Shown one piece after another: positions 1,971 to 60,131 of a stretch of 64,000 nucleotides of DNA. Numbering within the stretch: the stretch's first letter is position 1; the number at the start of each line of letters is the position of its first letter. A program made the position numbers and the translations under genes. Source of the DNA: Herpetosiphon sp. NSE202. GTDB taxonomy: Bacteria > Chloroflexota > Chloroflexia > Chloroflexales > Herpetosiphonaceae. Location: contig NZ_JBHUPY010000007.1 of the NCBI RefSeq assembly GCF_042688385.1, forward strand, positions 130,110 to 194,109, given 5' to 3'. The notes beneath the pieces are model-generated. The model saw only the letters and a program-made list of their open reading frames with translations. It did not search any database and was not told where the DNA came from.

Positions 1971-2232
1971 AGTTTCTCCCGCCGCTACATGATTGCGTAG
2001 CTTGTATTATCAACGATTGATCCGTCAAAAGTCAAAGGGTGGTAGCAACCATTAATCAAGAATTAACCATTAAATTGCCCAAAAGCATGCAAGAAATCAG
2101 TTTAAATTGCACCTATATCTAAGTAAAGGCTTATGCTCAGCCATTCTAGAATAAAACTTGACTTCCAGCATTGCCCCAAGCCACTCCAACTATACCATGC
2201 TCTTTCGCTCGTTAGCTTTCTGAGGAGTTTTG

Positions 2233-4056
2233 ATGACGGACTCTTTACTACTTATCTCGATTGGCCCAGTTCAAGATTTCATTGCAAGTGCCCGCCGCAC
2301 CCGCGACCTCTGGTTTGGTTCATGGCTGCTTAGCGAACTGGCCAAAGCGGCGGCGAAAAGCATTTATGAACACGAAGGCGATTTAATCTTTCCTTATCCA
2401 GCAACGCCAAAAACTGACCTTGCAGCAAACAGTACATTCAACGTCCCTAACAAAATTCTCGCCAAAATTAAAGACGATCCCAAAGCCCAAGCAGTTTTAG
2501 CCCGCGAGGCCTTAATCGCTCGATTGAATGAGATTCGCGAGGGAGCATTTGCCAAGGTCAATGGCGAAATTGAGCGAGAGCGAGCGATTGACCAAATCAA
2601 TTCCTTAGTTGAATTCAATTGGGTTGCATTACCCTTAGCAAGCGATGATACCTATCGTGCAACCCGCCAGCAGCTTGAGCACCTGATGGCAGCCCGCAAA
2701 AATACCCGTAATTTTGGCAAGGTAACGTGGGGTACGAACGCGCCAAAATCCTCAATTGATGGCGAACGGGAATCGGTGATTGATGAGAGTTTGTATCCAT
2801 TACCTAATGAGAAAACCAGAAATCCTACAGCATACGAAGACAAAGTTAGAAGTCTATATCAGAAATTCGGCATCAACGTTGGTGAGCGTTTATCAGGCGT
2901 TGATATTCTCAAGCGTCATGGGCAAAAAGGCAAAGATTCAAGATTTCCAAGCACCTCACATATGGCTGCAATTCCAATGTTCAACTTTCTAAATAAGTAT
3001 GATGAGCTAAATGCCAATATTAGTCTTATTGATGAGTGGAATAGATATATTAATTTTTTCAATAAAAATCCCACTCTGATAAAATATATTAATAATGAAA
3101 TAACCCCAAATCCTCAACCAATTTTCGGCGATAAGGATGGTTCATTATTATTTGCCGAACGATTCACCGATACATTAGAAGGTGATGATTTATCTGATGC
3201 TCGAAATGCACTTGAAGCATTCTATAACGCTTTAGGTGTTAAAAAACCTCCTATTCCCTACTATGCCATTTTGCATGCTGATGGCGATGCTATGGGTAGC
3301 GTGATTAATTTCCAATCGGATCTATTTAAACACCAAGCTATTTCCAAACAATTAACGCTGTTTGCAGGAGAAGTCAAATCAATCGTTGAAACGGAATATC
3401 AAGGAGCATTAGTTTATTCGGGCGGGGATGACGTTTTAGCATTTTTACCGTTACATACTGCATTGGAATGTGCCGATGCGTTGGCTAAAAAGTTTCAGAT
3501 TCTGTTAAGCGATTTCAAAAATAAAGAAGATCGTTCACCCACACTCTCGGTTGGCATTGCGATTGTTCACCACTTGGAGCCATTATCCGATGCCTTAGAG
3601 TTGGCACGCGCTGCCGAGAAAAAAGCCAAAGCTGTAGCAGGCAAAAATGCGCTGGCCATCAACCTCAGCAAACGTGGCGGCGCAGATCGAATTATCGTTG
3701 GCTCATGGATTGAAAGCACATATTCATTTTACAATCGACTTAAAAAATTAATTGAATGGCATCAAAACGATCAAATTCCCCTTGGCTTTGCTTTTGAACT
3801 GCATGATTTATCCATCCGACTAAAAGATTTACCTGCCGCAATTTTTCGCGCCGAAGCCAAACGAATTATCGAGCGCAAGCATACCAGCAACGGGATCAAA
3901 GTTGACGGTGATATTGCTCAAGCATTACTAGCCATGATTAATGATTTGGTTCCAGAAACGCAGACCGAAGCACACACGATGATCCACCAATTTGCTGATG
4001 AAGTGATTATTGCGGAATTTATTGCTCAAGCCAACAAACTGACTACAGGTCAATAA
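2233..4056 (+). CDS. cas10: Cas10/Cmr2 (type III-B large subunit), HD-less variant with intact cyclase palm motifs
   Basis: N-terminal ISIGPVQDFIASARRTRDLWFGSWLLS (Cmr2 signature), first palm YYAILHADGDAMG, second palm VYSGGDDVLAFLP (GGDD). No HD motif at the N-terminus. RBS GAGGAG 5 nt before ATG 2233 (the track start 2230 is a TTG). Confidence 0.85.
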   Translation: MTDSLLLISIGPVQDFIASARRTRDLWFGSWLLSELAKAAAKSIYEHEGDLIFPYPATPKTDLAANSTFNVPNKILAKIKDDPKAQAVLAREALIARLNEIREGAFAKVNGEIERERAIDQINSLVEFNWVALPLASDDTYRATRQQLEHLMAARKNTRNFGKVTWGTNAPKSSIDGERESVIDESLYPLPNEKTRNPTAYEDKVRSLYQKFGINVGERLSGVDILKRHGQKGKDSRFPSTSHMAAIPMFNFLNKYDELNANISLIDEWNRYINFFNKNPTLIKYINNEITPNPQPIFGDKDGSLLFAERFTDTLEGDDLSDARNALEAFYNALGVKKPPIPYYAILHADGDAMGSVINFQSDLFKHQAISKQLTLFAGEVKSIVETEYQGALVYSGGDDVLAFLPLHTALECADALAKKFQILLSDFKNKEDRSPTLSVGIAIVHHLEPLSDALELARAAEKKAKAVAGKNALAINLSKRGGADRIIVGSWIESTYSFYNRLKKLIEWHQNDQIPLGFAFELHDLSIRLKDLPAAIFRAEAKRIIERKHTSNGIKVDGDIAQALLAMINDLVPETQTEAHTMIHQFADEVIIAEFIAQANKLTTGQ

Positions 4057-4089
4057 TAGCAACTCAATAGGCTTTCAAGGAGTTAATTG

Positions 4090-5445
4090 ATGTCGCGAAA
4101 TAAACGTCGTGGTTCATCCACAAGAAACCAAGAATCAGAGCCACCAAAACCCAACACTGGTCAATGGCTGATCGAGCCACGTGACCCATTAATCGTTCGT
4201 GATGGTCGACCATTTAATAACACGCCTGGAGCCAAAGCCTATACTCAATCATTTCCGCCACCATCAGTTTTAGCGGGGGTTGTTCGAACACAAACTGCCT
4301 ACGCAACAAATATGCGGCTTACCCTTGATGATGGTCAACCTAATCAACCTAAGCTTGATCTGCTTAAACAAATAAAAATTTATGGGCCATTGCTATTCAA
4401 ATTGCCCAATCCAAATAAAGAAAAAGATGAGCCTGAATTCCTATGCCCTGCGCCTGCTGATGCATTGTTATTTGAGCTTGAAGCAAAACCATCCGATACT
4501 CAAGCAGCAGAATCGACGACATCCGCAGTTTGGCTCCGCCAATTAGTGCCAATTCAGCCTCCTGCTAGGTTTAGTAGCGATTTCAATGAACTTGGCTTGG
4601 TTGGTTTAGTCGAGGCTGATGCGCGTAAGCCAGCCAAAGAGCAACCGCAATTTTGGTATTGGGAACATTTTCTGCAATGGTTGCACGATCCAGCAGGATT
4701 AATCAATCAAACACACGGTTCTTCAGAACTAAAAACGGCTGATTTGGGCATTAAAGGCTTGCCAATCGATCAACGCACTCATACCCAAATTGATCCTGAG
4801 CGCCAGAGCGCCGAAGATGGCCGCTTATTTCAAACTCGTGGGCTGAGCTTTACCCAAGCTAAAGATGACCAACTCGCCGAAGCTCAGCGTTTAGCGCTAT
4901 TTGTCAAAGCCGACTACAAGCAATCTAATCTTGCAGTCCCAGCAATGAAGCTAGCGCCACTTGGCGGTGAACGTCGTTTGGCTCATTGGCATAGTGTTCC
5001 AACAATCAGTTCTTCCCCGTTCGATCAAGCAACCATTGATGCAATTGCGACAAAAATTGGGGAAACAGGAGCATGCCGCCTGATTCTGCTCACGCCATGC
5101 ATGTTTGAAAAAGGCTATCGCCCAACGTGGCTATGCCGCGATGTTGATGGTGTGCAGCCAACACTTGAGGCAATTGCGATCAAGCGCGCTCAAGTTATTT
5201 CAGGCTGGGATTTAGCAATTCGCAAGGCCAAACATACTCGCCGGCTAGCTCCCGCTGGCACTGTCTTGTTCCTCACATTCGCTGAAAAGGAAAATTCGGC
5301 GGCAATAGAAGCATGGGTTCGTAAGCTTTGGATGCAGTGCATCAGCGATGAGGAGCAAGATCGCCGTGATGGCTTTGGCTTGGCCGTATTTGGAACTTGG
5401 GATGGCGAATTTGCTGAAATCAAGGGAGTATCAAATGAATCGTAA
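4090..5445 (+). CDS. cmr3: Cmr3 (type III-B RAMP)
   Basis: LIEPRDPLIVRDGRPF N-terminal Cmr3 signature; C-terminal G-rich loop GFGLAVFGTWDG; RBS AAGGAG 7 nt upstream. Position after cas10. Confidence 0.75.
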   Translation: MSRNKRRGSSTRNQESEPPKPNTGQWLIEPRDPLIVRDGRPFNNTPGAKAYTQSFPPPSVLAGVVRTQTAYATNMRLTLDDGQPNQPKLDLLKQIKIYGPLLFKLPNPNKEKDEPEFLCPAPADALLFELEAKPSDTQAAESTTSAVWLRQLVPIQPPARFSSDFNELGLVGLVEADARKPAKEQPQFWYWEHFLQWLHDPAGLINQTHGSSELKTADLGIKGLPIDQRTHTQIDPERQSAEDGRLFQTRGLSFTQAKDDQLAEAQRLALFVKADYKQSNLAVPAMKLAPLGGERRLAHWHSVPTISSSPFDQATIDAIATKIGETGACRLILLTPCMFEKGYRPTWLCRDVDGVQPTLEAIAIKRAQVISGWDLAIRKAKHTRRLAPAGTVLFLTFAEKENSAAIEAWVRKLWMQCISDEEQDRRDGFGLAVFGTWDGEFAEIKGVSNES

Positions 5446-6880
5446 ACCAACTATTTCTGCACCAGATCTGGAAAATTATCAATTACCCAATCAATTTACC
5501 ATTGGCGAACACACCTATATCACCGAAACCCGCACCTATAAGCTGATCACCCCATTGTTTGGTGGTGGCGTTGAAGCTGGAGTGAATGACCCAATCACCC
5601 CAATTCGCGCCAGTGGCATTCGCGGCCAATTGCGCTTTTGGTGGCGAGCTATTCGCGGCGGTGGCTATAGTTCAATTGAGAAAATGAGAGAAGAAGAATC
5701 GAAAATTTGGGGTAGTGCTAGCACGAGTAGTGATTCAGAAAAAAACCAACAACTTTTTAGATCTGTGCAAATTAATGTTACTGAGGTTATTCATATTGAA
5801 GAGCAGGGCGTTCCAATGGTTATTAAACCGTATAAGGTCGAAGAAAAAACAAATGAACCTAATAAATTTATTACCAAACCTAATAAACAAAATGTAGTTC
5901 CTCTCTATATTGCTTTTCCACTCCAACCAACTTCAGAGGAAGCACAACAAATAGGAAAAGAAAACAGGCATGACCAAATTAAATACCTTACCAACAACCT
6001 CAAATTTACTTTAGAGATCACGTATCCCGAAAGTTTTAAACTTGAAATTCAAGCTGCACTATGGGCATGGGAGACATTTGGTGGGGTTGGTGGTCGTACC
6101 CGGCGTGGATTTGGTTCAATTAGAAGAACGGATGATCTAACATACCCCGATACAATGAAAGATTTCAAACCATGGCTTGATACAAATTTTAAAAAGTATA
6201 GTTTACTAAAACACCTACATAGATTTCCCCAGCTAGAGATTCACAATTCTCTAAGATTTATGATTTTTTATAAAACAATAAAATCAGGATTATTTGGAAT
6301 GTGGAGGAATTTAATAGAAAACTTTCGAGATTTTCGTCAAGCAAAAAATGATGATGGTAGAAGTAGTTGGCCTGAACCAAATCAAATCCGTAGAATTACA
6401 AAACAACATCTTAAGCATCATAATCCCGATAATGTTCAAGCAGGTCAGCAGCATAAGATAATCAAGGCATTTCCTCGTGCTCAGTTTGGGTTACCAATCA
6501 TTTTTCAATTTAAAGATAATAGATATGGATCTGATAGAAAAGATTTAGATCCTCGTCCTACAACTCTTGGATTGGTAAATCCTAACGATTCAAAAAAAGA
6601 GAGTGAGCGTTTAGCTAGCCCACTTATCTTAAAAACCTTCCAATGTACAAATGGAGATAGCATAGGGTTAGCATTTATTTTATCAGGAACCGAGTTATCT
6701 TCAAACATGGAGTTATCACTGAAGGCTAATCCCAGCAACCCTATAGATCCAAAGCCAGAAGATCTTAGGTTTCTATTAAGAGATAATGAAATGCTTGATA
6801 TAAATTCAATATCTGTAGAAGGAAATATCCTTGAAGCATTTTTAGCCTATCTTGAGGGGAAAATGCCGAAAGAAAAATAA
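5435..6880 (+). CDS. cmr1: Cmr1 (type III-B RAMP)
   Basis: ITPLFGGG, IRASGIRGQLRFWWRA and the G-rich loop WETFGGVGGRTRRGFGSI. RBS AAGGGAG before ATG 5435; overlaps the cmr3 stop by 11 nt. The C-terminal two thirds is AT-rich, see findings. Confidence 0.75.
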   Translation: MNRKPTISAPDLENYQLPNQFTIGEHTYITETRTYKLITPLFGGGVEAGVNDPITPIRASGIRGQLRFWWRAIRGGGYSSIEKMREEESKIWGSASTSSDSEKNQQLFRSVQINVTEVIHIEEQGVPMVIKPYKVEEKTNEPNKFITKPNKQNVVPLYIAFPLQPTSEEAQQIGKENRHDQIKYLTNNLKFTLEITYPESFKLEIQAALWAWETFGGVGGRTRRGFGSIRRTDDLTYPDTMKDFKPWLDTNFKKYSLLKHLHRFPQLEIHNSLRFMIFYKTIKSGLFGMWRNLIENFRDFRQAKNDDGRSSWPEPNQIRRITKQHLKHHNPDNVQAGQQHKIIKAFPRAQFGLPIIFQFKDNRYGSDRKDLDPRPTTLGLVNPNDSKKESERLASPLILKTFQCTNGDSIGLAFILSGTELSSNMELSLKANPSNPIDPKPEDLRFLLRDNEMLDINSISVEGNILEAFLAYLEGKMPKEK

Positions 6881-6922
6881 TTACGATTCTTCAAACATTC
6901 TTATTTAATTGGAGCATAAACC

Positions 6923-7819
6923 ATGAATCTCACCAAACTCGTTTTTGTCCATGCCCTTTCACCACTGCATGCTGGCACAGGCCAAGGCGCTGGGGTCATC
7001 GATTTGCCAATTGCCCGCGAAAAAGCCACCAATTTGCCCTATTTGCCAGGTTCATCGCTCAAAGGCCCGTTGCGTGATCGGGCAATGAACGCCAATGAAT
7101 GCGGAGTGCCCCTCAATAAAACGCCTGAAGAAATTTTCGGACGGTCTGAAACTAATAATTTGACCATGGGGGTGGTGCAATTCTCCGATTTACACTTGCT
7201 TTGTTTACCTGTGCGCAGTTTGTTTGGCACATTTGCCTGGGTTAGCTCGACTTATATTCTCAATCGTTTTGCCCGAAGTTTAGCCGATACTCATCAAGCT
7301 CAGCTGAGGGAGTTAGCCCCTATCCAGCTTGATGAAGCAACTCAATGCCTTGTAACCCAAAATTCAAGTCTCACTGCAAATACCAAAGTGTATCTTGAAG
7401 ATCTTGATTTTGTGGCCAAAAACCAGGAGGGGATTCATCAATGGGGAACATTCATCGCTCAGAATATTTTTGACTCAACCACAGAAGCTGAAAAATATTG
7501 GCATGATCACTTTATTCAACGTTTATGTATTGTTCACGATAATGTTTTGAGCTTTTTACTCAACACTGCAACCGAAATAACCGCTCGTATCAGCCTTGAT
7601 GACGATAAAAAAACAGTTAAAAAAGGCGCTTTGTGGTACGAAGAAGCCTTGCCAGCCGAATCAATTTTGACTGGCTTGATGTTGATTGCGCCACCAAAAG
7701 CAAACCAAACATATTTAGATGCAATGGCAAACGATCTTACAAATCTTTGTGAAAAACCAATTCAGCTTGGTGGCAAAGCAACCGTTGGGCGCGGAATTTG
7801 TCGCGTGATTGTGAAATAG
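6923..7819 (+). CDS. cmr4: Cmr4 (type III-B backbone RAMP, Cas7 family)
   Basis: LSPLHAGTGQGAGVIDLPIAREKATNLPYLPGSSLKGPLR (Cas7 glycine-rich/thumb signature); C-terminal G-rich loop GGKATVGRGICRV; RBS GGAG. Confidence 0.8.
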   Translation: MNLTKLVFVHALSPLHAGTGQGAGVIDLPIAREKATNLPYLPGSSLKGPLRDRAMNANECGVPLNKTPEEIFGRSETNNLTMGVVQFSDLHLLCLPVRSLFGTFAWVSSTYILNRFARSLADTHQAQLRELAPIQLDEATQCLVTQNSSLTANTKVYLEDLDFVAKNQEGIHQWGTFIAQNIFDSTTEAEKYWHDHFIQRLCIVHDNVLSFLLNTATEITARISLDDDKKTVKKGALWYEEALPAESILTGLMLIAPPKANQTYLDAMANDLTNLCEKPIQLGGKATVGRGICRVIVK

Positions 7820-7829
7820 GAGCAGTAGC

Positions 7830-8255
7830 ATGAGTAATTCAGTTTTTCAAACCCGCGATCAGAAATTTGCATCAGTAATTTATCAACAAATCCAAGACAT
7901 TAAGCAACAGTCTGTGGCAAACCAAAAACGCTATGGTGTAATAGCACATAAATTACCTATATTAATTAGAACTGCTGGGCTTGCTCAAGCATTAGTATTT
8001 ATTAGTTCAAGGAGTAAGAAAAAAGAGCTTGGCAAAGATGATGAATTTAGTTTATTCCTAACTCATCTTACAAAAACAATAAATATAGATACATCAGATA
8101 TTGTTGAATATGCTATTAAAGTAGATCTCTCAAAGTATATGTACATAACACAACAGATACTTGATGCACTGTTATGGTATAAACGCTTTGCTCAAAGCGT
8201 GCTTGGCATTGAGCCAACCGATCAACTTGATGACGAGCAGGGAGATAAAGAATGA
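7830..8255 (+). CDS. cmr5: Cmr5 (type III-B small subunit, Cas11 family)
   Basis: 141-aa alpha-helical protein between cmr4 and cmr6. RBS AGGAG; stop overlaps the cmr6 start (ATGA). Assignment is mainly positional. Confidence 0.6.
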   Translation: MSNSVFQTRDQKFASVIYQQIQDIKQQSVANQKRYGVIAHKLPILIRTAGLAQALVFISSRSKKKELGKDDEFSLFLTHLTKTINIDTSDIVEYAIKVDLSKYMYITQQILDALLWYKRFAQSVLGIEPTDQLDDEQGDKE

Positions 8256-9112
8256 ATAGTCGACGTGATCATTTAAATAATATCAAAGTGGATAACATAG
8301 CACATGCAGGTTTATGGCTTGATCGTTATTTATATGAACAAAAAAATGACGATGAAAATTCTAAAACGAAGCATTTTGCCGATGTTGCCAATATCGCCAA
8401 TCAAATGGATCAAACAGGAATCTATGAAGGTTTTTTTAAGCGCTGGGTGAACACATTAAAGGAAATTCCCGCTATTTGCTTGCTAAGAGCTGAAGTAAAA
8501 GGCCGAATGGTCGTGGGTCTCGGGACTGAAAGTGTGCTCGAAAACTCGATTACTTTGCAGCGCACCTATGGCATGCCCTACATCCCAGGTAGCGCCTTGA
8601 AGGGCTTGGCATCGAGCTTCGCCCACCAACGCCTCGGCCAAGGAGCTGCCAATGCAGATACACCCAACGATTGGGCGAAGGGTGGCAAATTTCATCGCGA
8701 ATTATTTGGCTCAACCGAGCTAAGTGGCTGTATCAGCTTTTATGATGCCTTGTATATTCCTAAGACGGCCAAAGCTGGAGGCCCATTACATCCCGATGTG
8801 ATTACTGTGCATCATCCTGAGTATTATCAAGGCAAGAAACAAGCTCCTGCCAAGGGTGATCAAGCGCAAACTATGCCACCAGCCGATTGGGATAGCCCAA
8901 CCATTATTCCATTTCTGAGCGCGACTGGTCACTATTTGGTAGCACTCAGCGGAGTAGAAGGTTGGTGTAATGCCGCCCGAAGCTTGCTCGCCAATGGCCT
9001 GACGCATATGGGCATCGGCGCAAAAACCTCCAGTGGTTATGGCCGGATGGAGCTTGATGCTAACTGTATGACAGAAGAGCAAATTAAATCACTACTTGAA
9101 AGCTTAGGTTAA
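8252..9112 (+). CDS. cmr6: Cmr6 (type III-B RAMP)
   Basis: MPYIPGSALKGLASSFAH (RAMP motif) and the C-terminal G-rich loop GIGAKTSSGYGRMEL. Confidence 0.75.
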   Translation: MNSRRDHLNNIKVDNIAHAGLWLDRYLYEQKNDDENSKTKHFADVANIANQMDQTGIYEGFFKRWVNTLKEIPAICLLRAEVKGRMVVGLGTESVLENSITLQRTYGMPYIPGSALKGLASSFAHQRLGQGAANADTPNDWAKGGKFHRELFGSTELSGCISFYDALYIPKTAKAGGPLHPDVITVHHPEYYQGKKQAPAKGDQAQTMPPADWDSPTIIPFLSATGHYLVALSGVEGWCNAARSLLANGLTHMGIGAKTSSGYGRMELDANCMTEEQIKSLLESLG

Positions 9113-9128
9113 TATAAAGGAGCTTGCT

Positions 9129-10436
9129 ATGCGCAAATTAATTTCATTTCTAGGAGCAAATCCACCAAGTAACAACTATAAACGAACGATTTATAAATAT
9201 GGGCAATTAGAACATGAGTCACTCTATGCGACTGCTGCCATGGCAAAAATTTTCAATTCTGATCAAGTTTATGTATTTGTAACACCTCAAGCTAAATTTA
9301 ATAATTTCGATTTATTAACCCAACATATGAATGAGGCAAATCTGACCGAACCCATAGCTTGTGACATTCCTATTGGCGAGAATAATACTGAAATCTGGCA
9401 AATTTTTAATGCTATTACAAATACGCTCCAAGATGGTGACACAATTATTTTTGATATTACAAATGGTTTGCGTTCATTACCAATTTTAGGATTTATCGCG
9501 TGTGCTTATATTACCTCTGTCCGTAAAGTAACAATTGAGCATTTAGTCTATGGAGCATTTGAAGTAAAGAAAGATATTATGCTTTCTGACGGAGATCCTG
9601 CAACTGAATCGCCTGTTTTCGATCTGACTCCATTTTTAACCTTGCTCGACTGGACAACCGCCACCAACACCTTTATTCAAACAGGCCGCGCCGAACAGCT
9701 TACTAAACTTGCTGAAACGTTTAAAAACGATGCAGTTGAAGGTTTTGCCAAACAAGTACACAAACTTTCACAAGAATTATTAACCACCCGCCCAGTTGGC
9801 GTAATTCAAGCAGCCTCAGGCTTTGAGCAAGCTTTAGCCAAGGTTGAGGCCGCCGTGCAACAAAACCCAGCCATGCAGCCGTATCAACAGTTGTTAGAAC
9901 GAATTAAAGATGAATATAGCCCATTTGCGATTGCTACTGATCCGCTGGCAGATTTGACTGAGGCCTATCGCCAAGCCCGATCTGATCAACAAGGCTTTTT
10001 GCGGATTCAAATAAAAATGATTCGCCAATATTTGGATAAAGGTCTACCAATTCAGGCAATGACTTTAGCTCGCGAGTGGTTAGTTTCGCTAGGAGTTTAT
10101 CATCAAGGAAGCCACGATATTTTCAATTATAAAGATCGAGAGGTTATTGCTCGAATGCTCAACCAAAATTCATGGAGCGAAGATCCACGTCCTACAGAAA
10201 CCCTTCAACCACATCTAAAGCAAATTAGGGAAGTTTGGTCAGGGATTACCCTCGACCCAAATGATAAAACCGAAGCCACGAATCATGTTCGAAACGATAT
10301 TGCCCACTGTGGAATGACTCCAGTTTTTATCAAGAATGGTCGAAAGCAACTAAATGTGCGCACAGCTGCTGATATTATTGACCAAACAATCAAAATCTGT
10401 GATCGTTTAGAAAGTTTATTAGCAACGATCGTTTGA
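9129..10436 (+). CDS. csx1: Csx1-family CARF-HEPN ancillary ribonuclease
   Basis: N-terminal CARF-like segment with a DxTHG-type motif (FDITNGLRSLP). C-terminal HEPN R-X4-H motif (HVRNDIAHCG). RBS AAAGGAG. Sits directly downstream of cmr6. Confidence 0.7.
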   Translation: MRKLISFLGANPPSNNYKRTIYKYGQLEHESLYATAAMAKIFNSDQVYVFVTPQAKFNNFDLLTQHMNEANLTEPIACDIPIGENNTEIWQIFNAITNTLQDGDTIIFDITNGLRSLPILGFIACAYITSVRKVTIEHLVYGAFEVKKDIMLSDGDPATESPVFDLTPFLTLLDWTTATNTFIQTGRAEQLTKLAETFKNDAVEGFAKQVHKLSQELLTTRPVGVIQAASGFEQALAKVEAAVQQNPAMQPYQQLLERIKDEYSPFAIATDPLADLTEAYRQARSDQQGFLRIQIKMIRQYLDKGLPIQAMTLAREWLVSLGVYHQGSHDIFNYKDREVIARMLNQNSWSEDPRPTETLQPHLKQIREVWSGITLDPNDKTEATNHVRNDIAHCGMTPVFIKNGRKQLNVRTAADIIDQTIKICDRLESLLATIV

Positions 10437-10446
10437 AGGAAAGTCT

Positions 10447-10836
10447 ATGCTCCTGATTAACTTTGCCCATCCATTGACTGATGCGCAGTTTAGCCAAGTC
10501 GTGGCCATCGTTGAAGAAACGCCACAACTATGTTTTGTCGATACCCAAGTTAGCCGAATGCGGCCTTTGGCTGAGGTTGCTTATGATTTAGTTGAAAGCG
10601 TTGGCTTGAAAACCGCCGATTGGCAAACTGTACCGATTATTATCAATCCCCCAGGCTTGGCTCCATTGGCCTTGGCAGTTATTGCCGAGTTGCACGGGCG
10701 TTCAGGCTATTTTCTGCCAATTATCAATATGCGGCCTGTTCCCAAAACAACTCCAACCATCTTTGAGGTAGCAGAAATTTGCAATTTGGATGCAATTCGC
10801 CAAATTGCACGTACACGGCGCATTCCCAAGCTGTAG
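10447..10836 (+). CDS. Small cas-operon-associated protein of unknown function (candidate ring-nuclease or Csx16-like accessory)
   Basis: 129-aa ORF starting 11 nt after the csx1 stop, with RBS GAAGGA. Predicted beta-alpha-beta start (MLLINFAHPLTDAQF) and a conserved-looking segment ELHGRSGYFLPIIN. No confident family assignment from sequence alone. Confidence 0.45.
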   Translation: MLLINFAHPLTDAQFSQVVAIVEETPQLCFVDTQVSRMRPLAEVAYDLVESVGLKTADWQTVPIIINPPGLAPLALAVIAELHGRSGYFLPIINMRPVPKTTPTIFEVAEICNLDAIRQIARTRRIPKL

Positions 10837-10884
10837 TCCAAGCACAGGGCATAGATCAAACTAGTCTATGCCCTGTGCTTGGAC
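10836..10884. terminator. Perfect 20-bp-stem hairpin between convergent cas operon and methyltransferase gene (candidate bidirectional terminator)
   Basis: GTCCAAGCACAGGGCATAGA, loop tcaaactag, then TCTATGCCCTGTGCTTGGAC. It lies exactly between the two convergent stop codons. No strong U-tract on either side. Confidence 0.55.
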
Positions 10885-11643
10885 TTAGGCAAAGCGCCCA
10901 ACATAGACCGTCGTGGTGTATAAAAAGGCGATTTTGCCGTCAACTTGATGCGCCTGCCACGCATCAATCAGGCCTTGACGTAGGGCTTGGTAACTTGGTT
11001 GATCGGGCGTTGGTGTGTACGACGAGGAAAATGCGCGGCCAAGCAGGCCTGCTTGGTCAAAATATTGGGCATTTTGGGCGCTGTAGCAAGCTGGTTGTTG
11101 GCCAAAAAAGTCGCTAATCAGTTGCGGGTCGATATTGGTATGTTTGACGCTCGAATAATCGGTGCCAAATTGGTGTAATAGGGCTTCGTATTGGCGCAAA
11201 AATGGCGTAGCATCAAGCGAACGTTGGTTCCAAATCAAGGCAACCCAGCCATCAGGCCGCAAAATGCGCTGCCATTCTTGGCGCGTAGCGTTTAGCTCAA
11301 ACCAGTGGAAGGCTTGGGCAGCCGTAATCCAATTAACGCTCTGATCGGCTAAACCAGTGGCTTCAGCGCTGCCATCAACCACTTGAAAATTGGGATAGTG
11401 CTCGGCTAGTTGCAAACTAGCTTCACGCATTGGCGCGTTTGGTTCGATGGCATAAACCGTTGCGCCATGCTCCAATAATTGCTGGCTCCAAATGCCCGTG
11501 CCAGCCCCAATATCGGCCACGATCGAGTTTGAGCCAAAGCCATGCTGCGTTTGCAATGGCCCAAAAATTTCGCGTGGGTAGGTTGGGCGAAATTGCACAT
11601 AATCGGCAACTCGATTGCTAAACCGTTGACGGTTATCACTCAT
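10885..11643 (-). CDS. Class I SAM-dependent methyltransferase
   Basis: Motif I VADIGAGTGIWS followed by an acidic residue at the end of beta2 (YAIEPN). Confidence 0.8.
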   Translation of the reverse strand: MSDNRQRFSNRVADYVQFRPTYPREIFGPLQTQHGFGSNSIVADIGAGTGIWSQQLLEHGATVYAIEPNAPMREASLQLAEHYPNFQVVDGSAEATGLADQSVNWITAAQAFHWFELNATRQEWQRILRPDGWVALIWNQRSLDATPFLRQYEALLHQFGTDYSSVKHTNIDPQLISDFFGQQPACYSAQNAQYFDQAGLLGRAFSSSYTPTPDQPSYQALRQGLIDAWQAHQVDGKIAFLYTTTVYVGRFA

Positions 11644-11666
11644 TGTCGGTCTCCTTCACACGATGC

Positions 11667-13406
11667 TTAGCTACGAAAGCTATACCACCATTCAACTACC
11701 AGCAACGCCAACGCCAAGCCAATCAAAATTGGCCATAATGGCGTGCCTTGAGGTGCTAAGCGGTCGCCCTCTGGCTGAGCAATTTGACTGATTGTTGGTT
11801 GGCTTTGTTGCTGTAGATTCGATTCCTGTGGATCGCCAAAATTGACCGCAATGCCGCCGCGATTGCTGCCAACCACCCGATATAAACCAGCTTGGTTCAA
11901 CCGTTGATCGAGCGCTTGAGCCTCGCCATCAGGTCGAGTTAATGGCGTATTCGGGGCAAAACTGCCAGCTGCCAGCTGTTCAGGCAACGATCCGCCAGTG
12001 AGATTGGCAATGCTGGCTGCGGTCAGCAAGGGGAAGGCCAATTTGGCGCTGAGATTAGCATTATCCAAATTAAACAGCCAAACGATGGTAGCTTGCTCTT
12101 GCCACATGCCACGCAGCACCAAGGGCAATTGGGTATCGGTTTCAATCACGCTGGTCAAACCAGTTGGGATATTCTCGCGAGTCATTGGGCGACGACCACC
12201 CCATTGAACGCTCGAAAGGTCGATGCCAGCAAAATCGGCATCAAGCACCGCGCTACTCGCCCGTTCGCCTAAAATGCTATCCTCAGTGAGCAAACGCTCG
12301 TCGCGCGGGGGATTGACAATTAACAGCGCACTGCTGGGCAATTGCTCAGGCAAAACGCCATTCAACACCGTCAAATCAACCCGTCGCTCGCTTATAGTTG
12401 TGCCCACGCTTAGCTCGATATTGGGCAAACTCCGCAGCATGCGTTCCAGTGGCGATGGAGTTAATGTTGCCAAATGCACCCGCAACGAGCCAGAGCGATC
12501 AAGCGATACCAGCGCCCGATCATCAACCGCATAATCGTCGTTGGGGCTAAGCTGCAATTCGGCCAACTCGCCTGCGCCTACTTCCCATGTGCGTTCCTCG
12601 CTGCCGCCAGGCTGAATCACGATATTTTGCTCGGATTCCAGCTCGCCATCAAGCAACAGGGTTAATGTTCGAGCTGTGGGCAAATCGCTAAAATTGGTCA
12701 CGCGAGCATACAATGCATTGCGTTGGTTGGGCAAGCGACGGCTGGCGAAGGTCACGATCCCGCTATTGGCGGTGCTTTCGCCCAGCGTGCGCCACTCTAA
12801 TTCGGCGGCAACCGAGAGCGGCGTGCTACTAGCAGGCAAAGCGCCATCGCTCAACACCAGCATTTGATTTTGGCGATCATTGGCGAGAGTGGCGTTGGCA
12901 ATGCTCAGCGCTTGGGCCAGATCGGCGCGATTGCCAGCAGGCGCAAGCTCGGCCACAATTTGGCGCAATTGTTGGCGCTCTGTATAGCCGCCATAGCCCA
13001 ACAAGCGGGCTTCACGGTTTAGCTCAACCAAAGCCACACTATCGTCACGGCCCAAATCACCAATCAAATCTTGAGTTTGTTGTTGGGCTTGCTCAAAGGT
13101 ACCATTGGCCAGCATGCTCGAGGTTGTGTCGAGGATAATCACCACATGACGTGGATCGTTGACCCCAAAAATCCATGTTGGTTGGGTCAGGCCCAAGGCC
13201 AAACATGCGGCAACCAAGAGGTGCAACGCCAACAAAAGGGTTAATGGCAATTTGCGTTGCTGGCGCTCAGGTGGTGGTTTGAGCGCCGCCCACAGCCGAA
13301 TTGTGGGAATTCGCAAGCGCTGACGGCGCTGCCGCACCATATGCAAAATTGCAATGATTGGCAACGAAATTAAGCCAATTAAGCCCAAGGGAACAAGCAA
13401 ATTCAT
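11667..13406 (-). CDS. VWA domain-containing membrane protein (BatA-like)
   Basis: N-terminal TM helices (MNLLVPLGLIGLISLPIIAIL), a MIDAS-containing VWA segment (VVIILDTTSSMLA) and a C-terminal TM. The track start 13490 was moved to the ATG at 13406. Confidence 0.7.
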   Translation of the reverse strand: MNLLVPLGLIGLISLPIIAILHMVRQRRQRLRIPTIRLWAALKPPPERQQRKLPLTLLLALHLLVAACLALGLTQPTWIFGVNDPRHVVIILDTTSSMLANGTFEQAQQQTQDLIGDLGRDDSVALVELNREARLLGYGGYTERQQLRQIVAELAPAGNRADLAQALSIANATLANDRQNQMLVLSDGALPASSTPLSVAAELEWRTLGESTANSGIVTFASRRLPNQRNALYARVTNFSDLPTARTLTLLLDGELESEQNIVIQPGGSEERTWEVGAGELAELQLSPNDDYAVDDRALVSLDRSGSLRVHLATLTPSPLERMLRSLPNIELSVGTTISERRVDLTVLNGVLPEQLPSSALLIVNPPRDERLLTEDSILGERASSAVLDADFAGIDLSSVQWGGRRPMTRENIPTGLTSVIETDTQLPLVLRGMWQEQATIVWLFNLDNANLSAKLAFPLLTAASIANLTGGSLPEQLAAGSFAPNTPLTRPDGEAQALDQRLNQAGLYRVVGSNRGGIAVNFGDPQESNLQQQSQPTISQIAQPEGDRLAPQGTPLWPILIGLALALLVVEWWYSFRS

Positions 13407-16492: not shown

Positions 16493-16935
16493 GGATGAAG
16501 GATGAGGGATGAGGGATGAGGGATGAGGGGTGAAGGGACGAGGATTCAGGATTCAGGAACAAGCAACCACGAAGAGCACGAAGAACGCGAAGGCTGAGGA
16601 TAAACACATTAATAATTCAGCACTATCACTTAACGCAGAGGCGCAGAGATTCCAGGGCTATTGGCTATTGGCTATCGGAACATCATTCGTGCAATTCGTG
16701 CAATTCGTGGCTAAAATAGAGATTTGGCTATTGGCTTTGGGCTTCTGCGAACATCATTCGTGATCTTCGTGTTCTTCGTGGATCAATTTATTAACGCAGA
16801 GGCGCAGAGGAAATGTGGCTATTGGCTATTGGCTGTTGGCTCTGGGCTAGCAGAAACCAAATCCTAAAAATCTGTGCCAATCTATGGCTAAACAATAATG
16901 CTTCGTGTAATTCGTGCAATTCGTGGCGAAAAAAA
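16493..16935. repeat. Mosaic intergenic repeat cluster 1 (heptamer/decamer tandem modules)
   Basis: (GATGAGG)n 16493-16560; CACGAAGAGCACGAAGAACG 16567-16592; TTAACGCAGAGGCGCAGAG 16630-16648 and 16791-16810; (GGCTATT)n 16656-16678 and 16817-16850; (TTCGTGCAAT)n 16686-16710 and 16901-16927; CTTCGTGTTCTTCGTGGATC 16755-16784. The region lies between convergent genes. Confidence 0.85.
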
Positions 16936-16957: not shown

Positions 16958-17689
16958 TTAATCCATCCAAACAGCCTCAATCAATCGAGGCAACACCACA
17001 TCAGCACTGCCCGCCAACGAATAGCTCGCAATCCCGCGCAACGGTATATCAGGATTAATTTCAATCACCGTCTTTTTGCGCCGCAACGCCCGATGCGGCA
17101 ATGAAGCAATTGGCTCGACAATCGCCGATGTGCCAATGACCAAGGCCACATCGCTGCGATCAAACGCATCTTTTGCCGCTTGTAAAATTGCCGCATCCAA
17201 CAGCTCGCCAAACCACACAATATCGGGACGCAACGGCGAACCACAAGCAGGGCAAATTGGCTGCTCAGCATCCCAATCTTCAACCAAGCGTCGTTCATGC
17301 GCACAAATTGTGCGCGCCAAACTGCCATGCACCTCAAAAACATTGCTTGAGCCAGCCCGTTGATGCAAACTATCAATATTTTGGGTAAATAACTTAAATT
17401 CTGGCATCAATTGTTCAAGCTGCGCCACTGCATAATGGCCAGCATTGGGTTGAGCCGCTTCACATTGGCGCTGCATCGTTTGATACACCTGAAAAACCCC
17501 AATTGGATCACGCTCGAAGCCAGCCAAGGTTGCAACCTTATCAGGATCATAGGCCGTCCAACGGGCATCGGCGGCAGCACTACGATAGGTCGGAATCCCG
17601 CTGGGCGCAGAAATTCCCGAGCCAGTTAATACAACCATTGATTGGGCTTGACGCAAATGGTGGATTAAATCAGCAGCAAATTCACTCAT
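16958..17689 (-). CDS. cobB: NAD-dependent protein deacylase, Sir2/CobB family
   Basis: GSGISAPSGIPTYRS (Sir2 NAD motif), zinc-ribbon CPACGS...C-term, and HGS catalytic His. Confidence 0.8.
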   Translation of the reverse strand: MSEFAADLIHHLRQAQSMVVLTGSGISAPSGIPTYRSAAADARWTAYDPDKVATLAGFERDPIGVFQVYQTMQRQCEAAQPNAGHYAVAQLEQLMPEFKLFTQNIDSLHQRAGSSNVFEVHGSLARTICAHERRLVEDWDAEQPICPACGSPLRPDIVWFGELLDAAILQAAKDAFDRSDVALVIGTSAIVEPIASLPHRALRRKKTVIEINPDIPLRGIASYSLAGSADVVLPRLIEAVWMD

Positions 17690-18054
17690 TGATCAATCTC
17701 CTTGCAACTCAATTAAAAGCACGAGTGTGCTATTTACTACGTTAGATTGTAAGAGTAAATCGTGGCTAGATAATCAAATCTTATTAACAGTTTATTATTT
17801 GCATAATAATTTAGGCCAAAATCTATTGAAATTCGGCTGCGAATGTTTTACTATCATTAAGAGACAGATTGAGGAACGTTGATGCTCTTTAGCAACGCTT
17901 CACTTTTGCATTCGACTACTTGAGCAAATGGATTTTGTGCCTAGCTGTACGTGATTGCGATTGCGTGCCGCTATTTTTATGATTTTGCCAATACCCACTG
18001 TGGTATTTGCCGATAAACGTCCTATCAATCCTTCATGCCAAAGGATCGCAGACC

Positions 18055-18363
18055 ATGCAAACCGAACGCGTTAAAAGCCGTGGGGTCTTGCTTAAATTAG
18101 CAAGCCATATAGTCCAATTAGCCGTCATTGTCCGCGAAGCCGAGGGTATCAACGATAACGATGCCTACATGGTTGCCGAACAAATTATTGATCATGTGAG
18201 TGCCTCGCATCAAGTGCCAAGCCAAGATTGCTGGCCGGTTCAGGTTGTCTGTCGCGCATGGCAAGTGGTTGTGCAACATCAACCAAGCTGCCGTTGCCGC
18301 GGAGCCGATATGAATACCGTCGCCGATAAATTGGTTAAACTCGATTGGGTTGCCGTCAACTAA
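18055..18363 (+). CDS. Hypothetical protein
   Basis: ORF with RBS AAAGGA before ATG 18055. No recognisable motif. Confidence 0.3.
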   Translation: MQTERVKSRGVLLKLASHIVQLAVIVREAEGINDNDAYMVAEQIIDHVSASHQVPSQDCWPVQVVCRAWQVVVQHQPSCRCRGADMNTVADKLVKLDWVAVN

Positions 18364-18459
18364 CTTCGGCTAATTTCCTCAATTGCTCCAACTCCATGCC
18401 AAAAATCGCCAACATGCGGCTCTAGCTCCCGATAGCGTTTTGTTACGGGAGGTATCATC

Positions 18460-19974
18460 ATGTTGGCGAAAGTTTGGAGTTGCGCCGTGGTTGGCCTCGA
18501 TGGTGCGTTAGTCGAAGTCGAAGTTGATCTCAGTCGTGGTTTGCCGACCTTCACGATTGTAGGCTTGCCCGATACTGCCGTTCAAGAGGCCAAAGAGCGA
18601 GTCCGCGCCGCCGTACGCAATAGTGGCGGTTCCTTCCCCGATAAACGGCTAACCGTCAATTTGGCTCCTGCTGATTTACGTAAAGCAGGCCCAGCCTACG
18701 ATCTGCCAATTGCCGTGGGCATTTTATTGGCTTCAGGCCAAATCGCTGCCGATGTGAGCCAAGCACTGTTTGTCGGCGAGCTATCGCTTGATGGAGCTTT
18801 GCGCCACACCGATGGCATCTTGCCAATGGTCACAATTGCCCGCCGCGAAGGCTTGCAAACAGTTTATGTGCCGCATTGCGATGCCGCCGAAGCAGCGTTA
18901 CTCGGCGATATGACGATTATTCCTGTGCGCTCCATCGTCGAGATTGCTGCTCATCTCAATGGCGAGCACTATATCGCAGCCTACGAAGGCCAGCCACCAG
19001 CCCCTGAAGCCCTCAGTTATAGCGTCGATTTTGCCGATGTCAAAGGCCAAGAACACGTCAAACGGGCTTTAGAAGTTGCTGCTGCTGGTGGTCATAATGT
19101 TCTGATGAGCGGCCCGCCTGGCTCTGGCAAAACCTTACTAGCCCGCTGCGTACCCTCTATTTTGCCGCCGTTGAGCCTTGATGAAGCCTTGGATGTAACC
19201 AAAATTTATTCGGTCAAAGGCCTGTTACCCAGCGATCTGCCCTTTATTCGCACGCGCCCATTTCGCTCGCCGCATCACACAATTTCCAATGCTGGCCTCG
19301 TCGGTGGTGGCCGCACCCCGCAGCCAGGCGAGATTTCGTTGGCCCATCGGGGCGTGCTTTTTCTCGACGAAATGCCCGAATTTAGCCAACAAGTACTCGA
19401 AGTCTTGCGCCAACCACTCGAAGATCATACGGTGGTACTCAGTCGCGCCGCAGGCACGCTCACATTCCCGGCAAACTTCGTGCTAATAGGTGCTATGAAC
19501 CCTTGCCCTTGTGGCTACTTAAGTGACCCTACCCGCCAATGCGTCTGCCCACCAGCCGCAATTGCCCGCTATCAAAAACGCATTTCTGGGCCATTACTCG
19601 ATCGCATCGATATTCATATTGAAGTCCCACGGCTTGAATATGAAAAGCTTGCGAGTGTGCGTAGTAGCGAATCATCGGAGCAAATTCGCGAGCGCGTCGT
19701 GTTAGCGCGCCAACGCCAAGCTGAACGCTTTTGCAAGCAGTCAATCTTGACCAATAGCGATATGGGGCCAGCCCAATTGCGCCAAGCCTGCGAGCTTGAT
19801 GCCGCCAGCCAAAGCCTGATGAAGGCGGCCATGCGCCAATTACAACTCTCGGCCCGCAGTTATCATCGGGTGCTTAAATTGGCCCGCACAATTGCTGATT
19901 TGGCTAATCTTGAGCAAATTCAACCAGCGCATTTGGCCGAAGCACTGCAATATCGACCCCGCCGAACCGAATAA
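18460..19974 (+). CDS. comM: Mg-chelatase-like AAA+ ATPase YifB/ComM
   Basis: N-terminal MLAKVWSCAVVGLDGALVEVEVDLSRGLPTFTIVGLPDTAVQEAKERV (YifB signature), Walker A GPPGSGKT, C-terminal Mg-chelatase domain. Confidence 0.85.
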   Translation: MLAKVWSCAVVGLDGALVEVEVDLSRGLPTFTIVGLPDTAVQEAKERVRAAVRNSGGSFPDKRLTVNLAPADLRKAGPAYDLPIAVGILLASGQIAADVSQALFVGELSLDGALRHTDGILPMVTIARREGLQTVYVPHCDAAEAALLGDMTIIPVRSIVEIAAHLNGEHYIAAYEGQPPAPEALSYSVDFADVKGQEHVKRALEVAAAGGHNVLMSGPPGSGKTLLARCVPSILPPLSLDEALDVTKIYSVKGLLPSDLPFIRTRPFRSPHHTISNAGLVGGGRTPQPGEISLAHRGVLFLDEMPEFSQQVLEVLRQPLEDHTVVLSRAAGTLTFPANFVLIGAMNPCPCGYLSDPTRQCVCPPAAIARYQKRISGPLLDRIDIHIEVPRLEYEKLASVRSSESSEQIRERVVLARQRQAERFCKQSILTNSDMGPAQLRQACELDAASQSLMKAAMRQLQLSARSYHRVLKLARTIADLANLEQIQPAHLAEALQYRPRRTE

Positions 19975-20132
19975 ACGGCTGGTGGTAACATCTGCTAACC
20001 AACACAGCGATTGACATCACCCATCAGCCACGTACAATCATCATGAAACCGATCGATTGATCAATACGGCGCTTGCTGGTTGCTGGGCAAGCGTGTATAT
20101 ACGTGCCAATGATGCTATTTGTTGGCTGAAGG

Positions 20133-24535: not shown

Positions 24536-24945
24536 CCCTTTCCTTATAATGAGGAGAGGGGTGTTTTTGTTAAGGCAGAAGTCAAAAGTCAAAAGTCAAA
24601 ATAGCCGCTGAAACCACGAAGAACGCGAAGAACGCGAAGTACATTTTAGCCACAGATTGCCCAGATTGTTTTGATTATCTTTCCACAGCCAAAAGCCATT
24701 AGCCTTGGAATCTCTGCGCCTCTGCGTTAAATGCCGATCCACGAAACATACGAAGGCTTTTATTTTTTCGCCACAGATTACACAGATTATTATTTTAATC
24801 TCTCAAAGTCATCAGCCAGGAACCTGAACCCTGACTACTATTGACTCCTTTTTTTGGTTTTTGACTTCTGACTTTTGACTTTTGACTTTAAAAAACGCTT
24901 CCCCCACAAACTCGTAGGTTCATGAGGGAAGCAAGGCTGAGAAAT
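24536..24945. repeat. Mosaic intergenic repeat cluster 2
   Basis: (GTCAAAA)n about 24575-24600; CACGAAGAACGCGAAGAACGCGAAG about 24613-24640; CTCTGCGCCTCTGCGTTAA about 24708-24730; (GACTTTT/GACTTCT)n about 24855-24895. Lies between convergent lon and nuoN. Confidence 0.8.
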
Positions 24946-33508: not shown

Positions 33509-33581
33509 TCCCTGATAGCTCAGTTGGTAGAGCAATTGACTGTTAATCAATGGGTCCTAGGTTCGAGTCCTAGTCAGGGAG
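33509..33581 (+). tRNA. tRNA-Asn (GTT)
   Basis: Cloverleaf is readable: acceptor tccctga/tcaggga, D-arm gctcagttggtagagc, anticodon loop ctGTTaa, T-arm ggttcgagtcc. Followed by CCA. Confidence 0.85.
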
Positions 33582-33604
33582 CCACTTCTTTTTACAAATG
33601 ATAA

Positions 33605-33677
33605 TCCCTGATAGCTCAGTTGGTAGAGCGGTTGACTGTTAATCAGCATGTCCTAGGTTCGAGTCCTAGTCAGGGAG
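33605..33677 (+). tRNA. tRNA-Asn (GTT), second tandem copy
   Basis: Near-identical to the first copy (differs in the anticodon stem and variable region). Anticodon loop ctGTTaa, followed by CCA. Confidence 0.85.
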
Positions 33678-33686
33678 CCAAAGCAT

Positions 33687-38859: not shown

Positions 38860-39250
38860 TGGATTCTAACTCTAATGTTACATTGGATGGGCAAGCAGTG
38901 GAATGCCCTCACCCCCAGCCCCGCTCCCACTGAACGCGGGCGAGGGGAGCACAGACTCTGTGGTTCCCTCGTGTCCGTTCGACGGGCGCGGGGGTGAGGG
39001 GAAATCAGTGGTTAAGTGATGTACTATTATATCTAACGCCTATGCCATTTTTGCTTCTGATTTTTGGTAGCCTCCCTAATCCTTTATCTTTTCCATTGGC
39101 CCAGATTCGCTCAAATTATTCTTTCCCAAAGCCAAAAGACAATAGCCAATAGCCTGATCCCTTTTGACTTCTGACTTCTGACTTCTGACTTCTGATTTTT
39201 GCTTTGGCATTTCATCCTTCATCCCTCATCCTTCATCCTTTCAAAATTAC
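38860..39250. repeat. Mosaic intergenic repeat cluster 5
   Basis: G/C-rich hairpin module CCCTCACCCCCAGCCCCGCTCCCACTGAACGCGGGCGAGGGGAGC...CGGGCGCGGGGGTGAGGG at 38906-39001; CAATAGCCAATAGCC; (GACTTCT)x4 at about 39165-39195; CATCCTTCATCCCTCATCCTTCATCC at about 39215-39240. Confidence 0.85.
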
Positions 39251-42099: not shown

Positions 42100-42316
42100 A
42101 CCCCTTTTATAGAAGTATGAAGGATGAATTATGAGGGATGAAATACTTCTTCAGCCATTCACACCTTATTTATTGAAGGATGAATTTCATTGCTCACATA
42201 TTCACACCTTTTTAGAAATAAGCAATAATTCAAAGCCGCAAAAATCCTATCCCTCATCCCTCATCCCTCATCCCTCATCCCTCATCCCTCATCCCTCATC
42301 CCTCATCCCTCATCCT
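42100..42316. repeat. Mosaic repeat cluster 6 with (CCTCATC)x9 heptamer run
   Basis: GAAGGATGAATTATGAGGGATGAAA modules, then (CCCTCAT)n 42250-42316. The run overlaps the last 4 codons and the stop of proB. Confidence 0.85.
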
Positions 42317-60009: not shown

Positions 60010-60053
60010 AACAACAAAAAACCACTGGTCGAATGACCAGTGGTTTGATTTGG

Positions 60054-60126: not shown

Positions 60127-60131
60127 ATTGG

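Follow-up and report, generated by a model that had tools for sequence, protein, structure and literature searches.

A stand-alone subtype III-B (Cmr) CRISPR locus with an HD-less Cas10, Csx1 and Csx15 in Herpetosiphon sp. NSE202

A Cmr operon that stands by itself on a chromosome, with no CRISPR array and no genes for adaptation or crRNA (CRISPR RNA) processing beside it, raises the questions whether it still encodes a working module and by which activities that module would act. Such an operon lies near one end of the stretch of DNA analysed here, a 64,000-nucleotide segment from Herpetosiphon sp. NSE202 (contig NZ_JBHUPY010000007.1, positions 130,110 to 194,109 of the forward strand) that we refer to as the window. 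Combining profile searches, alignments to proteins of solved structure and comparisons with related loci, we suggest with good confidence that this chromosomal locus of Herpetosiphon sp. NSE202 encodes a working CRISPR module of subtype III-B (Cmr), stand-alone and equipped for both interference and signalling. The locus is ordinary in that it is of a known, well-characterised kind and is already correctly named at NCBI; as a discovery it matters little, since it is a textbook signalling-only III-B module and its closest characterised relative, TtCmr of Thermus thermophilus HB8, is built alike. Its value lies in being a clean natural example of a complete, predicted cyclic tetra-adenylate (cA4) circuit within one operon, in which Cas10 would signal to Csx1 and Csx15 would serve as the off-switch.

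Composition of the operon and architecture of Cas10

The operon occupies positions 2233-10836 of the + strand and consists of eight intact and closely packed open reading frames (ORFs), which were scored against the NCBIfam (with curated cut-offs), Pfam and PADLOC profile sets. The genes and the two elements that border them are as follows.

2233-4056, + strand: cas10/cmr2, 607 amino acids, HD-less large subunit with an intact cyclase palm domain
4090-5445, + strand: cmr3, 451 amino acids, Cas5-group subunit
5435-6880, + strand: cmr1, 481 amino acids, RAMP subunit
6923-7819, + strand: cmr4, 298 amino acids, Cas7 backbone subunit and target-RNA nuclease
7830-8255, + strand: cmr5, 141 amino acids, Cas11 small subunit
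8252-9112, + strand: cmr6, 286 amino acids, RAMP subunit
9129-10436, + strand: csx1, 435 amino acids, CARF-HEPN ancillary RNase, predicted to be activated by cA4
10447-10836, + strand: csx15, 129 amino acids, CARF-like, predicted cA4 ring nuclease or sponge (off-switch)
1971-2232, no strand assigned: intergenic region from the divergent Ser/Thr kinase gene to cas10, presumed cmr promoter and 5' untranslated region (UTR)
10835-10885, no strand assigned: perfect 22-bp hairpin between the convergent csx15 and methyltransferase genes, probable bidirectional terminator

Two pairs of genes overlap, cmr3 and cmr1 by 11 nt and cmr5 and cmr6 by 4 nt, and ribosome-binding sites precede the start codons of cas10 (GAGGAG, ATG at 2233), cmr3 (AGGAG, ATG at 4090) and cmr1 (GGGAG, ATG at 5435). 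The profile matches bear out the seven genes that the initial annotation had named at this place and in this order (cas10/cmr2, cmr3, cmr1, cmr4, cmr5, cmr6 and csx1). That annotation also counted eight proteins and left the gene for the eighth without a name; it is csx15 (NF040560).

All six Cmr subunits are matched by subtype-specific models. Cas10/Cmr2 scores 220 bits with TIGR02577 (cut-off 79; PADLOC Cas10, 1.6e-100) as opposed to only 59 bits with the Csm1 model (cut-off 170), and it also matches Pfam Cmr2_N and Cas10-Cmr2_palm2. Cmr3 is recognised by Pfam Cas_Cmr3 (243 bits, cut-off 21, 9.8e-72) and by PADLOC Cmr3 (8e-88), Cmr1 by TIGR01894 (70 bits, cut-off 29, 2e-19) and PADLOC Cmr1 (1.8e-34), Cmr4 by TIGR02580 (229 bits, cut-off 87, 1.3e-67) and PADLOC (3e-68), Cmr5 by NCBIfam (52 bits, cut-off 28), Pfam Cas_Cmr5 (4e-23) and PADLOC (3e-33), and Cmr6 by TIGR01898 (124 bits, cut-off 51, 9e-36) and PADLOC Cmr6 (7e-42). 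A Cmr2-type Cas10, Cmr3, the Cmr1, Cmr4 and Cmr6 RAMPs and Cmr5 thus stand together in one operon, and the hidden Markov model search against Cas profiles upholds the assignment to subtype III-B (Cmr). In Cmr4, Asp27 (in GVIDLPI) stands opposite the Asp in the GVVDQPI stretch of Pyrococcus furiosus Cmr4, a residue that we take to be catalytic for target RNA cleavage.

The Cas10 protein was initially described as beginning at the D1 region and lacking the HD nuclease domain, and this description holds. In alignments to Cmr2 chains in the PDB, its N-terminus begins at the Cmr2_N/D1 region and the N-terminal HD region of ~200 amino acids is absent: residue 4 is paired with residue 26, at the start of the P. 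furiosus Cmr2 construct from which the HD domain was deleted, residue 10 has its counterpart in residue 207 of Sulfolobus islandicus Cmr2, and the palm region corresponds to positions 658-799 in full-length P. furiosus Cmr2. An HD domain hidden upstream of cas10 was considered and ruled out, because only 262 nt of AT-rich intergenic DNA separate the gene from the divergent kinase gene, and re-examination of the N-terminus yields no HD motif, the ATG at 2233 having its own ribosome-binding site. The short intergenic region together with the positions at which the alignments start therefore indicate that the HD domain is truly absent and not lost to mis-annotation. The cyclase motifs DGD (350-352, with D350 and D352, in HADGDAMG) and GGDD (397-400) are both retained, as noted initially, and are invariant in six homologues; both belong to one palm domain, Palm2 (PF22335, residues 344-476), and are not spread over two.

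In these respects, Cas10 is far from unique. The protein is 100% identical to an NCBI protein named type III-B Cas10/Cmr2 from Herpetosiphon sp. NSE202 and has 3332 homologues at E <= 1e-20; the best 120 of these 3332 are 498-680 amino acids long and therefore HD-less, and HD-less Cas10 proteins of ~600 amino acids form a very large clade. The closest Cas10 of solved structure (PDB 9arw) is likewise HD-less and has 612 amino acids; literature look-ups for PDB 9arw, 9z7q, 9lq5, 9l7c and 9x25 returned no describing paper. A Cas10 HD domain can be recognised in no more than 39% of type III loci (PMC11229360), and a subset of III-B Cas10 proteins of ~600 amino acids lack it entirely and are predicted to act solely by means of cyclic nucleotide signalling, as has been shown for Vibrio metoecus (PMC8682760). 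The lack of the HD domain and the intact cyclase motifs support the placement of the Herpetosiphon Cas10 in this HD-less clade with a predicted function in signalling only, a reading that is supported by its agreement with the published view of HD-less III-B Cas10 proteins (PMC8682760).

Comparison with the well-studied TtCmr, encoded on plasmid pTT27 of T. thermophilus HB8 and thus plasmid-borne and from a different phylum, shows how closely the operon follows an established plan. The order cas10-cmr3-cmr1-cmr4-cmr5-cmr6 is identical in the two operons, the TtCmr Cas10 is HD-less as well (584 amino acids, 38% identity end to end from residue 2, same DGD and GGDD motifs), and cas6, cas1 and cas2 are missing from both. 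The core order is also the same in two other Chloroflexota relatives (loci L004 and L005 of our comparison set); the position of cmr1 between cmr3 and cmr4, which the initial annotation had correctly reported and set apart from the canonical arrangement, is therefore not distinctive. Unlike the Herpetosiphon operon, TtCmr has no csx1 or csx15 directly downstream, where an AbrB/VapC pair and then unrelated genes are found, and its CRISPR array lies ~4.6 kb upstream beside a csm operon, whereas there is none in the 64 kb of the window.

Predicted cA4 signalling by Cas10, Csx1 and Csx15

We suggest that the module would work as follows. Cas10, Cmr3, Cmr1, Cmr4, Cmr5 and Cmr6 would assemble around a mature crRNA that is presumably transcribed at another CRISPR locus in the genome and cut there by Cas6. 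Pairing of this crRNA with the transcript of an invader would allow Cmr4, in which the catalytic Asp is present, to cut the RNA, and the same pairing would turn on the palm domain of Cas10 for the polymerisation of ATP to a cyclic oligoadenylate (cOA), most probably cA4; Cas10 itself would be unable to act as a single-stranded DNase because it has no HD domain. Binding of cA4 to the CARF domain of Csx1 would activate the HEPN RNase and cause collateral RNA degradation, and Csx15 would bind cA4 and slowly degrade or sequester it, thereby resetting the system. The sequence itself shows which genes and domains are present, that the catalytic motifs are kept and that the HD domain, an array and adaptation genes are missing; from where the crRNA comes, which messenger is made and what each enzyme does are points that we infer.

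For Csx1, the presence of a CARF-HEPN protein in the 3' part of the operon is confirmed by a PADLOC match (CARF2--CARF_HEPN, 8.5e-93) over residues 1-426 of 435, next to matches to TIGR02221 (1.5e-29) and to the TM1812-family CARF model (104 bits, cut-off 76). An N-terminal CARF domain is combined with a C-terminal HEPN domain that has the R-x4-6-H motif, and both the CARF motif IIFDITNxxRS and the HEPN motif RNDIAHxG (R388-N-D-I-A-H393) are invariant in five homologues. The closest solved relative, found with the single sequence, is the Csx1-Crn2 fusion (PDB 8y75; CARF region, E = 1.3e-7), and a profile built from five Csx1 sequences had no match in the PDB at E <= 0.01. Csx1-Crn2 (PDB 8y75 and 8y7g) is a cA4-activated CARF-HEPN RNase (PMC11317161), the R-N-x-x-A-H motif of which aligns with that of the Herpetosiphon Csx1; it carries a fused ring nuclease, whereas here the separate csx15 gene encodes a member of a different ring-nuclease family. 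Because Csx1 is accompanied by Csx15 and its closest solved relative is activated by cA4, its RNase activity is probably switched on by cA4.

The evidence for Csx15 is likewise specific. The protein matches the NF040560 equivalog with 142 bits (cut-off 35; 8e-42), PADLOC Csx15 (1e-37), and, at 1e-14, PDB 9teu ('csx15') and the Csx15 domain of CbCash. Its residues H8, H83, R118, R122 and R125 align with H11, H82, R116, R120 and R123 of PfCsx15, and five of six PfCsx15 interface residues are kept, Ser9 of PfCsx15 being Ala7 here. The His and Arg residues of PfCsx15 are needed for cA4 binding, filament formation or cleavage (PMC13148439), and the key ones are conserved in the Herpetosiphon protein, which resembles the family of PfCsx15, CliCsx15 (PDB 9teu and 9tet) and the Cash Csx15 domain (PDB 9ylu); CliCsx15 differs in that it sits in a III-A locus. 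Csx15 is thus predicted to be the cA4 off-switch that completes the circuit, either by cleavage or by sequestration alone, and it has been described before in the company of cA4 effectors, Csx1 among them (PMC12409355; PMC13148439).

Cas10 enzymes often yield mixtures of cOA in vitro (PMC11229360), the size of the ring cannot be read from the Cas10 sequence, and for the system behind the closest solved Cas10, that of PDB 9arw, we found no paper that names it; a messenger other than cA4, i.e. cA3, cA6 or SAM-AMP (S-adenosylmethionine-AMP), that is sensed by Csx1 and Csx15 would be compatible with these points. The accessory genes make such a messenger very improbable. By profile searches, the operon is devoid of NucC, CorA, NrN or Csm6-type genes, and both characterised Csx15 proteins as well as the Cash Csx15 domain are specific for cA4. 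Extrinsic ring nucleases including Csx15 co-occur only with cA4-dependent effectors (PMC12409355), and among the PADLOC models nearest to this Csx1 are those of Csx1 fused with Csx16, Csx20 or Csx3, of which Csx16 and Csx20 are cA4-specific ring nucleases (PMC12409355). VmeCmr of V. metoecus illustrates the difference: it is likewise a III-B system with a Cas10 of ~600 amino acids that has no HD domain and acts by cyclic nucleotide signalling only (PMC8682760), but it makes cA3 and activates the DNase NucC, whereas Csx1 and Csx15 in Herpetosiphon point to cA4 and RNA degradation. We favor cA4 because the characterised Csx15 proteins are specific for it, because ring nucleases are found only with cA4 effectors and because sister species encode a Card1-like effector at the same locus.

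Divergence of the locus within Herpetosiphon

The locus is found at the same chromosomal site in eight Herpetosiphon genomes, between the gene for the FHA-containing Ser/Thr kinase and the methyltransferase gene, which is followed by a BatA/VWA gene. The syntenic set includes H. aurantiacus DSM 785, H. geysericola, H. llansteffanensis, H. gulosus, a Chloroflexi metagenome-assembled genome (MAG) and a Logan assembly. The H. aurantiacus locus is already catalogued as III-B in a published survey, and the loci of H. aurantiacus, H. gulosus, H. geysericola and H. llansteffanensis share the core gene order, the HD-less Cas10 and the terminal csx15 with the locus described here. Identity to these loci is only 39-85% for the Cas proteins as opposed to 83-97% for the flanks.

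This divergence is uneven along the operon. In comparisons with H. geysericola and H. llansteffanensis, the flanking genes and csx15 are 90-97% identical in amino acid sequence, with a synonymous divergence (dS) of 0.14-0.44 and a ratio of non-synonymous to synonymous divergence (dN/dS) of about 0.04-0.12. For the same two species, identity falls to 71-77% for Cas10, ~50% for Csx1 and ~39-49% for Cmr1, and Cmr4 and Cmr5 are 84-85% identical to their H. llansteffanensis orthologues and 59% and 46%, respectively, to those of H. geysericola; in all these proteins dS is elevated and dN/dS higher than in the flanks. Within the genus, no gene of the operon has diverged further than cmr1, the product of which shares 39-74% amino acid identity with its Herpetosiphon orthologues. 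Taken together, the cas genes show dS values of up to 1.7 and a dN/dS of 0.2-0.5, and dN/dS is below 1 for all eight ORFs.

A mosaic comparison of window positions 2100-10500 with loci L001-L003, L006, L007 and L009 gave identities, in windows of 300 nt against the two closest loci (L002 and L003), of 41%-94% within the operon and 87-96% outside it. The best-matching genome is L009 for cas10 and csx1, L003 for cmr3, cmr4, cmr5 and cmr6, L007 for cmr1 and L002 for csx15, and this change of the nearest relative from gene to gene suggests that old alleles have been exchanged at a fixed locus.

The accessory genes vary at the same site. In relatives, the effector slot between cmr6 and csx15 encodes Csx1, a 284-amino-acid Card1-like CARF-PD(D/E)xK nuclease, or both, and csx15 is kept as the final gene in every relative compared. 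The combinations found, and the coordinates of the slot in five relatives, are listed here.

Csx1 and Csx15: window, H. geysericola and L009
Csx1, Card1-like nuclease and Csx15: H. llansteffanensis
Card1-like nuclease and Csx15: H. aurantiacus, H. gulosus and the Chloroflexi MAG
L001, effector slot: 17172-18026
L003, effector slot: 9636-11834
L005, effector slot: 17131-20649
L006, effector slot: 17181-18035
L007, effector slot: 17115-17969

The Card1-like nuclease of the sister species is presumably another effector of the cA4 type (Card1/Can2). In one Chloroflexales MAG, the slot holds genes for Csx1, an Mrr-like protein and a TM-CARF protein.

It may be that the Cmr cassette is a recombination hot-spot at a fixed site throughout the genus, in which anciently diverged subunit alleles are shuffled between species and the Csx1/Card1-like slot toggles while csx15 stays nearly invariant, a proposal drawn from sequence comparison for and against which we see about equal grounds. 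The candidates for shuffling are above all cmr1, cmr4, cmr5 and csx1, set among flanking genes that are 90-97% identical between the species. If true, this would point to a diversifying pressure at the level of the subunits of the type III complex, for example from anti-CRISPR proteins, and not to simple vertical drift. Mosaic divergence and accessory variation fit the general pattern of defence-gene evolution, and the Herpetosiphon orthologues together provide a natural experiment of modest size on how effectors are exchanged, and how single subunits evolve as a mosaic, while the locus stays in place.

These data also bear on the possibility that the complex has a role outside defence, e.g. 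in the regulation of host transcripts or in an action independent of guides. The neighbouring genes have housekeeping functions (superoxide dismutase, U32 peptidase, kinase, methyltransferase, BatA/VWA, Lon and NADH dehydrogenase) and the chromosomal position is conserved genus-wide, as might be expected for a host function; fast mosaic divergence and effector swapping, however, are what genes engaged in conflict with mobile elements typically show, no domain of a regulatory type is present, and the data are explained without this role, which we therefore regard as so improbable that it hardly competes with a function in defence.

The operon has a GC content of 0.39-0.45 compared with ~0.51-0.54 for the flanks, which is consistent with a foreign origin despite the genus-wide conserved position.

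crRNA supply, operon boundaries and surroundings

How would the complex obtain its guides? The initial annotation had reported neither an array nor cas6, cas1 or cas2 in the 64 kb, and repeat, Rfam and PADLOC scans remained empty: tandem-repeat, direct-repeat and Rfam scans found no CRISPR array, and among the other 47 ORFs of the window (at least 80 amino acids) PADLOC found no match to Cas1, Cas2 or Cas6. In seven further Herpetosiphon genomes, no array, cas6, cas1 or cas2 was found up to 10 kb away from the orthologous locus, and the 10 kb upstream in the syntenic relatives, a stretch beyond the limits of the window, encode superoxide dismutase, U32 peptidase, PhzF, a hydrolase and the kinase, with no cas gene called. 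Literature searches returned nothing specific on Herpetosiphon CRISPR arrays. Arrays are missing from most III-B loci, and in the majority of type III systems Cas6 acts in trans (PMC12669027). According to a published survey, H. aurantiacus has III-A and III-D loci besides its III-B locus; the genus therefore holds other loci able to supply crRNA and Cas6.

Four observations weigh against a functional module that signals through cA4. First, no source of crRNA is seen in the 64-kb window, and supply in trans is deduced from the genus and the literature. Second, the assignment of cA4 as the messenger draws on association, and we make it as an inference. Third, the NCBIfam score of Cmr3 is 97.4 against a cut-off of 100.4 and falls 3 bits short. 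Fourth, cmr1 of H. geysericola seems to be split into ORFs of 134 and 345 amino acids (L002, 13297-14776); this may be a frameshift or a pseudogene, so that the system may be disappearing from at least one lineage.

Some of these points would also fit an orphaned or decaying Cmr module, the genes of which are intact but for which the strain has no compatible crRNA or Cas6, so that it would currently confer no immunity. Besides the lack of an array, cas6 and cas1/cas2 in the window and within 10 kb in seven relatives and the apparently split cmr1 of H. geysericola, the dN/dS of 0.2-0.5 in the cas genes, higher than the ~0.05-0.1 of the flanks, agrees with such a state. The same ratio nevertheless stays well below 1, all eight ORFs are intact with every catalytic motif kept, and throughout the genus the locus has stayed at one site; moreover, stand-alone III-B loci are the norm and functional elsewhere (PMC12669027), and further type III loci are present in H. 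aurantiacus. An orphaned module thus appears unlikely, and we favor a functional module that is supplied with crRNA in trans.

At its upstream boundary, the intergenic region 1971-2232 is 87% conserved among four Herpetosiphon genomes, and its first ~100 nt are nearly invariant. These positions (1971-2070), which adjoin the start of the kinase gene, are more conserved across the four genomes than the adjacent cas coding sequence and contain a short hairpin, GCTACATGATTGCGTAGC; they may be a shared regulatory region or a 5' UTR element. A consensus promoter scan picked no + strand promoter in 1971-2232, and consensus promoter and terminator scans performed no better than on shuffled sequence. 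Downstream, the hairpin at 10835-10885 has a folding energy of -41.6 kcal/mol (z = -10.5) and is without a U-tract on the + strand; it is the probable bidirectional terminator that closes the operon. Among ten loci compared, the sequence of its 15-nt arm was matched in L002 alone and on one strand only.

The immediate neighbours of the operon are, by Pfam, a Lon protease, a ComM/Mg-chelatase-like AAA+ protein, an ABC transporter, Sir2 and NADH dehydrogenase. Weak PADLOC matches in the window (CARF_LON, RtcR-CARF_AAA, CARF_TM, BrxL, SspA/DndA and mad3/mad8) were considered as extra CARF effectors or as signs of a defence island and rejected; because Pfam identifies the immediate neighbours as housekeeping proteins, these matches are most likely to generic domains, not every match having been traced to an ORF. 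The divergent Ser/Thr kinase gene (447-1970, - strand), the product of which has a C-terminal FHA domain, was rejected as a part of the system as well, its PADLOC matches to PD-T4-6 and MAD6 being through the generic kinase domain only. We treat it as a neighbour because it scores far below all NCBIfam equivalog cut-offs, has a host-like GC content and is 93-97% conserved. The gene also contains, at ~962-1100, an array of 27-33-nt repeats that keep the reading frame and code for a linker of low complexity.

Elsewhere in the window, many intergenic 7-nt and 9-nt tandem repeats recur (ATCCCTC x9.6, GGATGAG x7, CACGAAGAG), and tRNA genes are present at two places, one with two tandem tRNA-Asn(GTT) genes that are 93% identical and 96 nt apart.

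16493-16925, 24579-24889, 39161-39240, 42249-42315, 43508-43734 and 47607-47862: intergenic tandem repeats
33509-33680: tandem tRNA-Asn(GTT) pair
60051-60310, - strand: tRNA-Phe/Val/Leu cluster

A further array of ~15 copies, with a period of 18, 36 or 54 nt, lies at 35024-35510 inside an ORF of 431 amino acids (34964-36259, - strand) that presumably encodes a repetitive protein.

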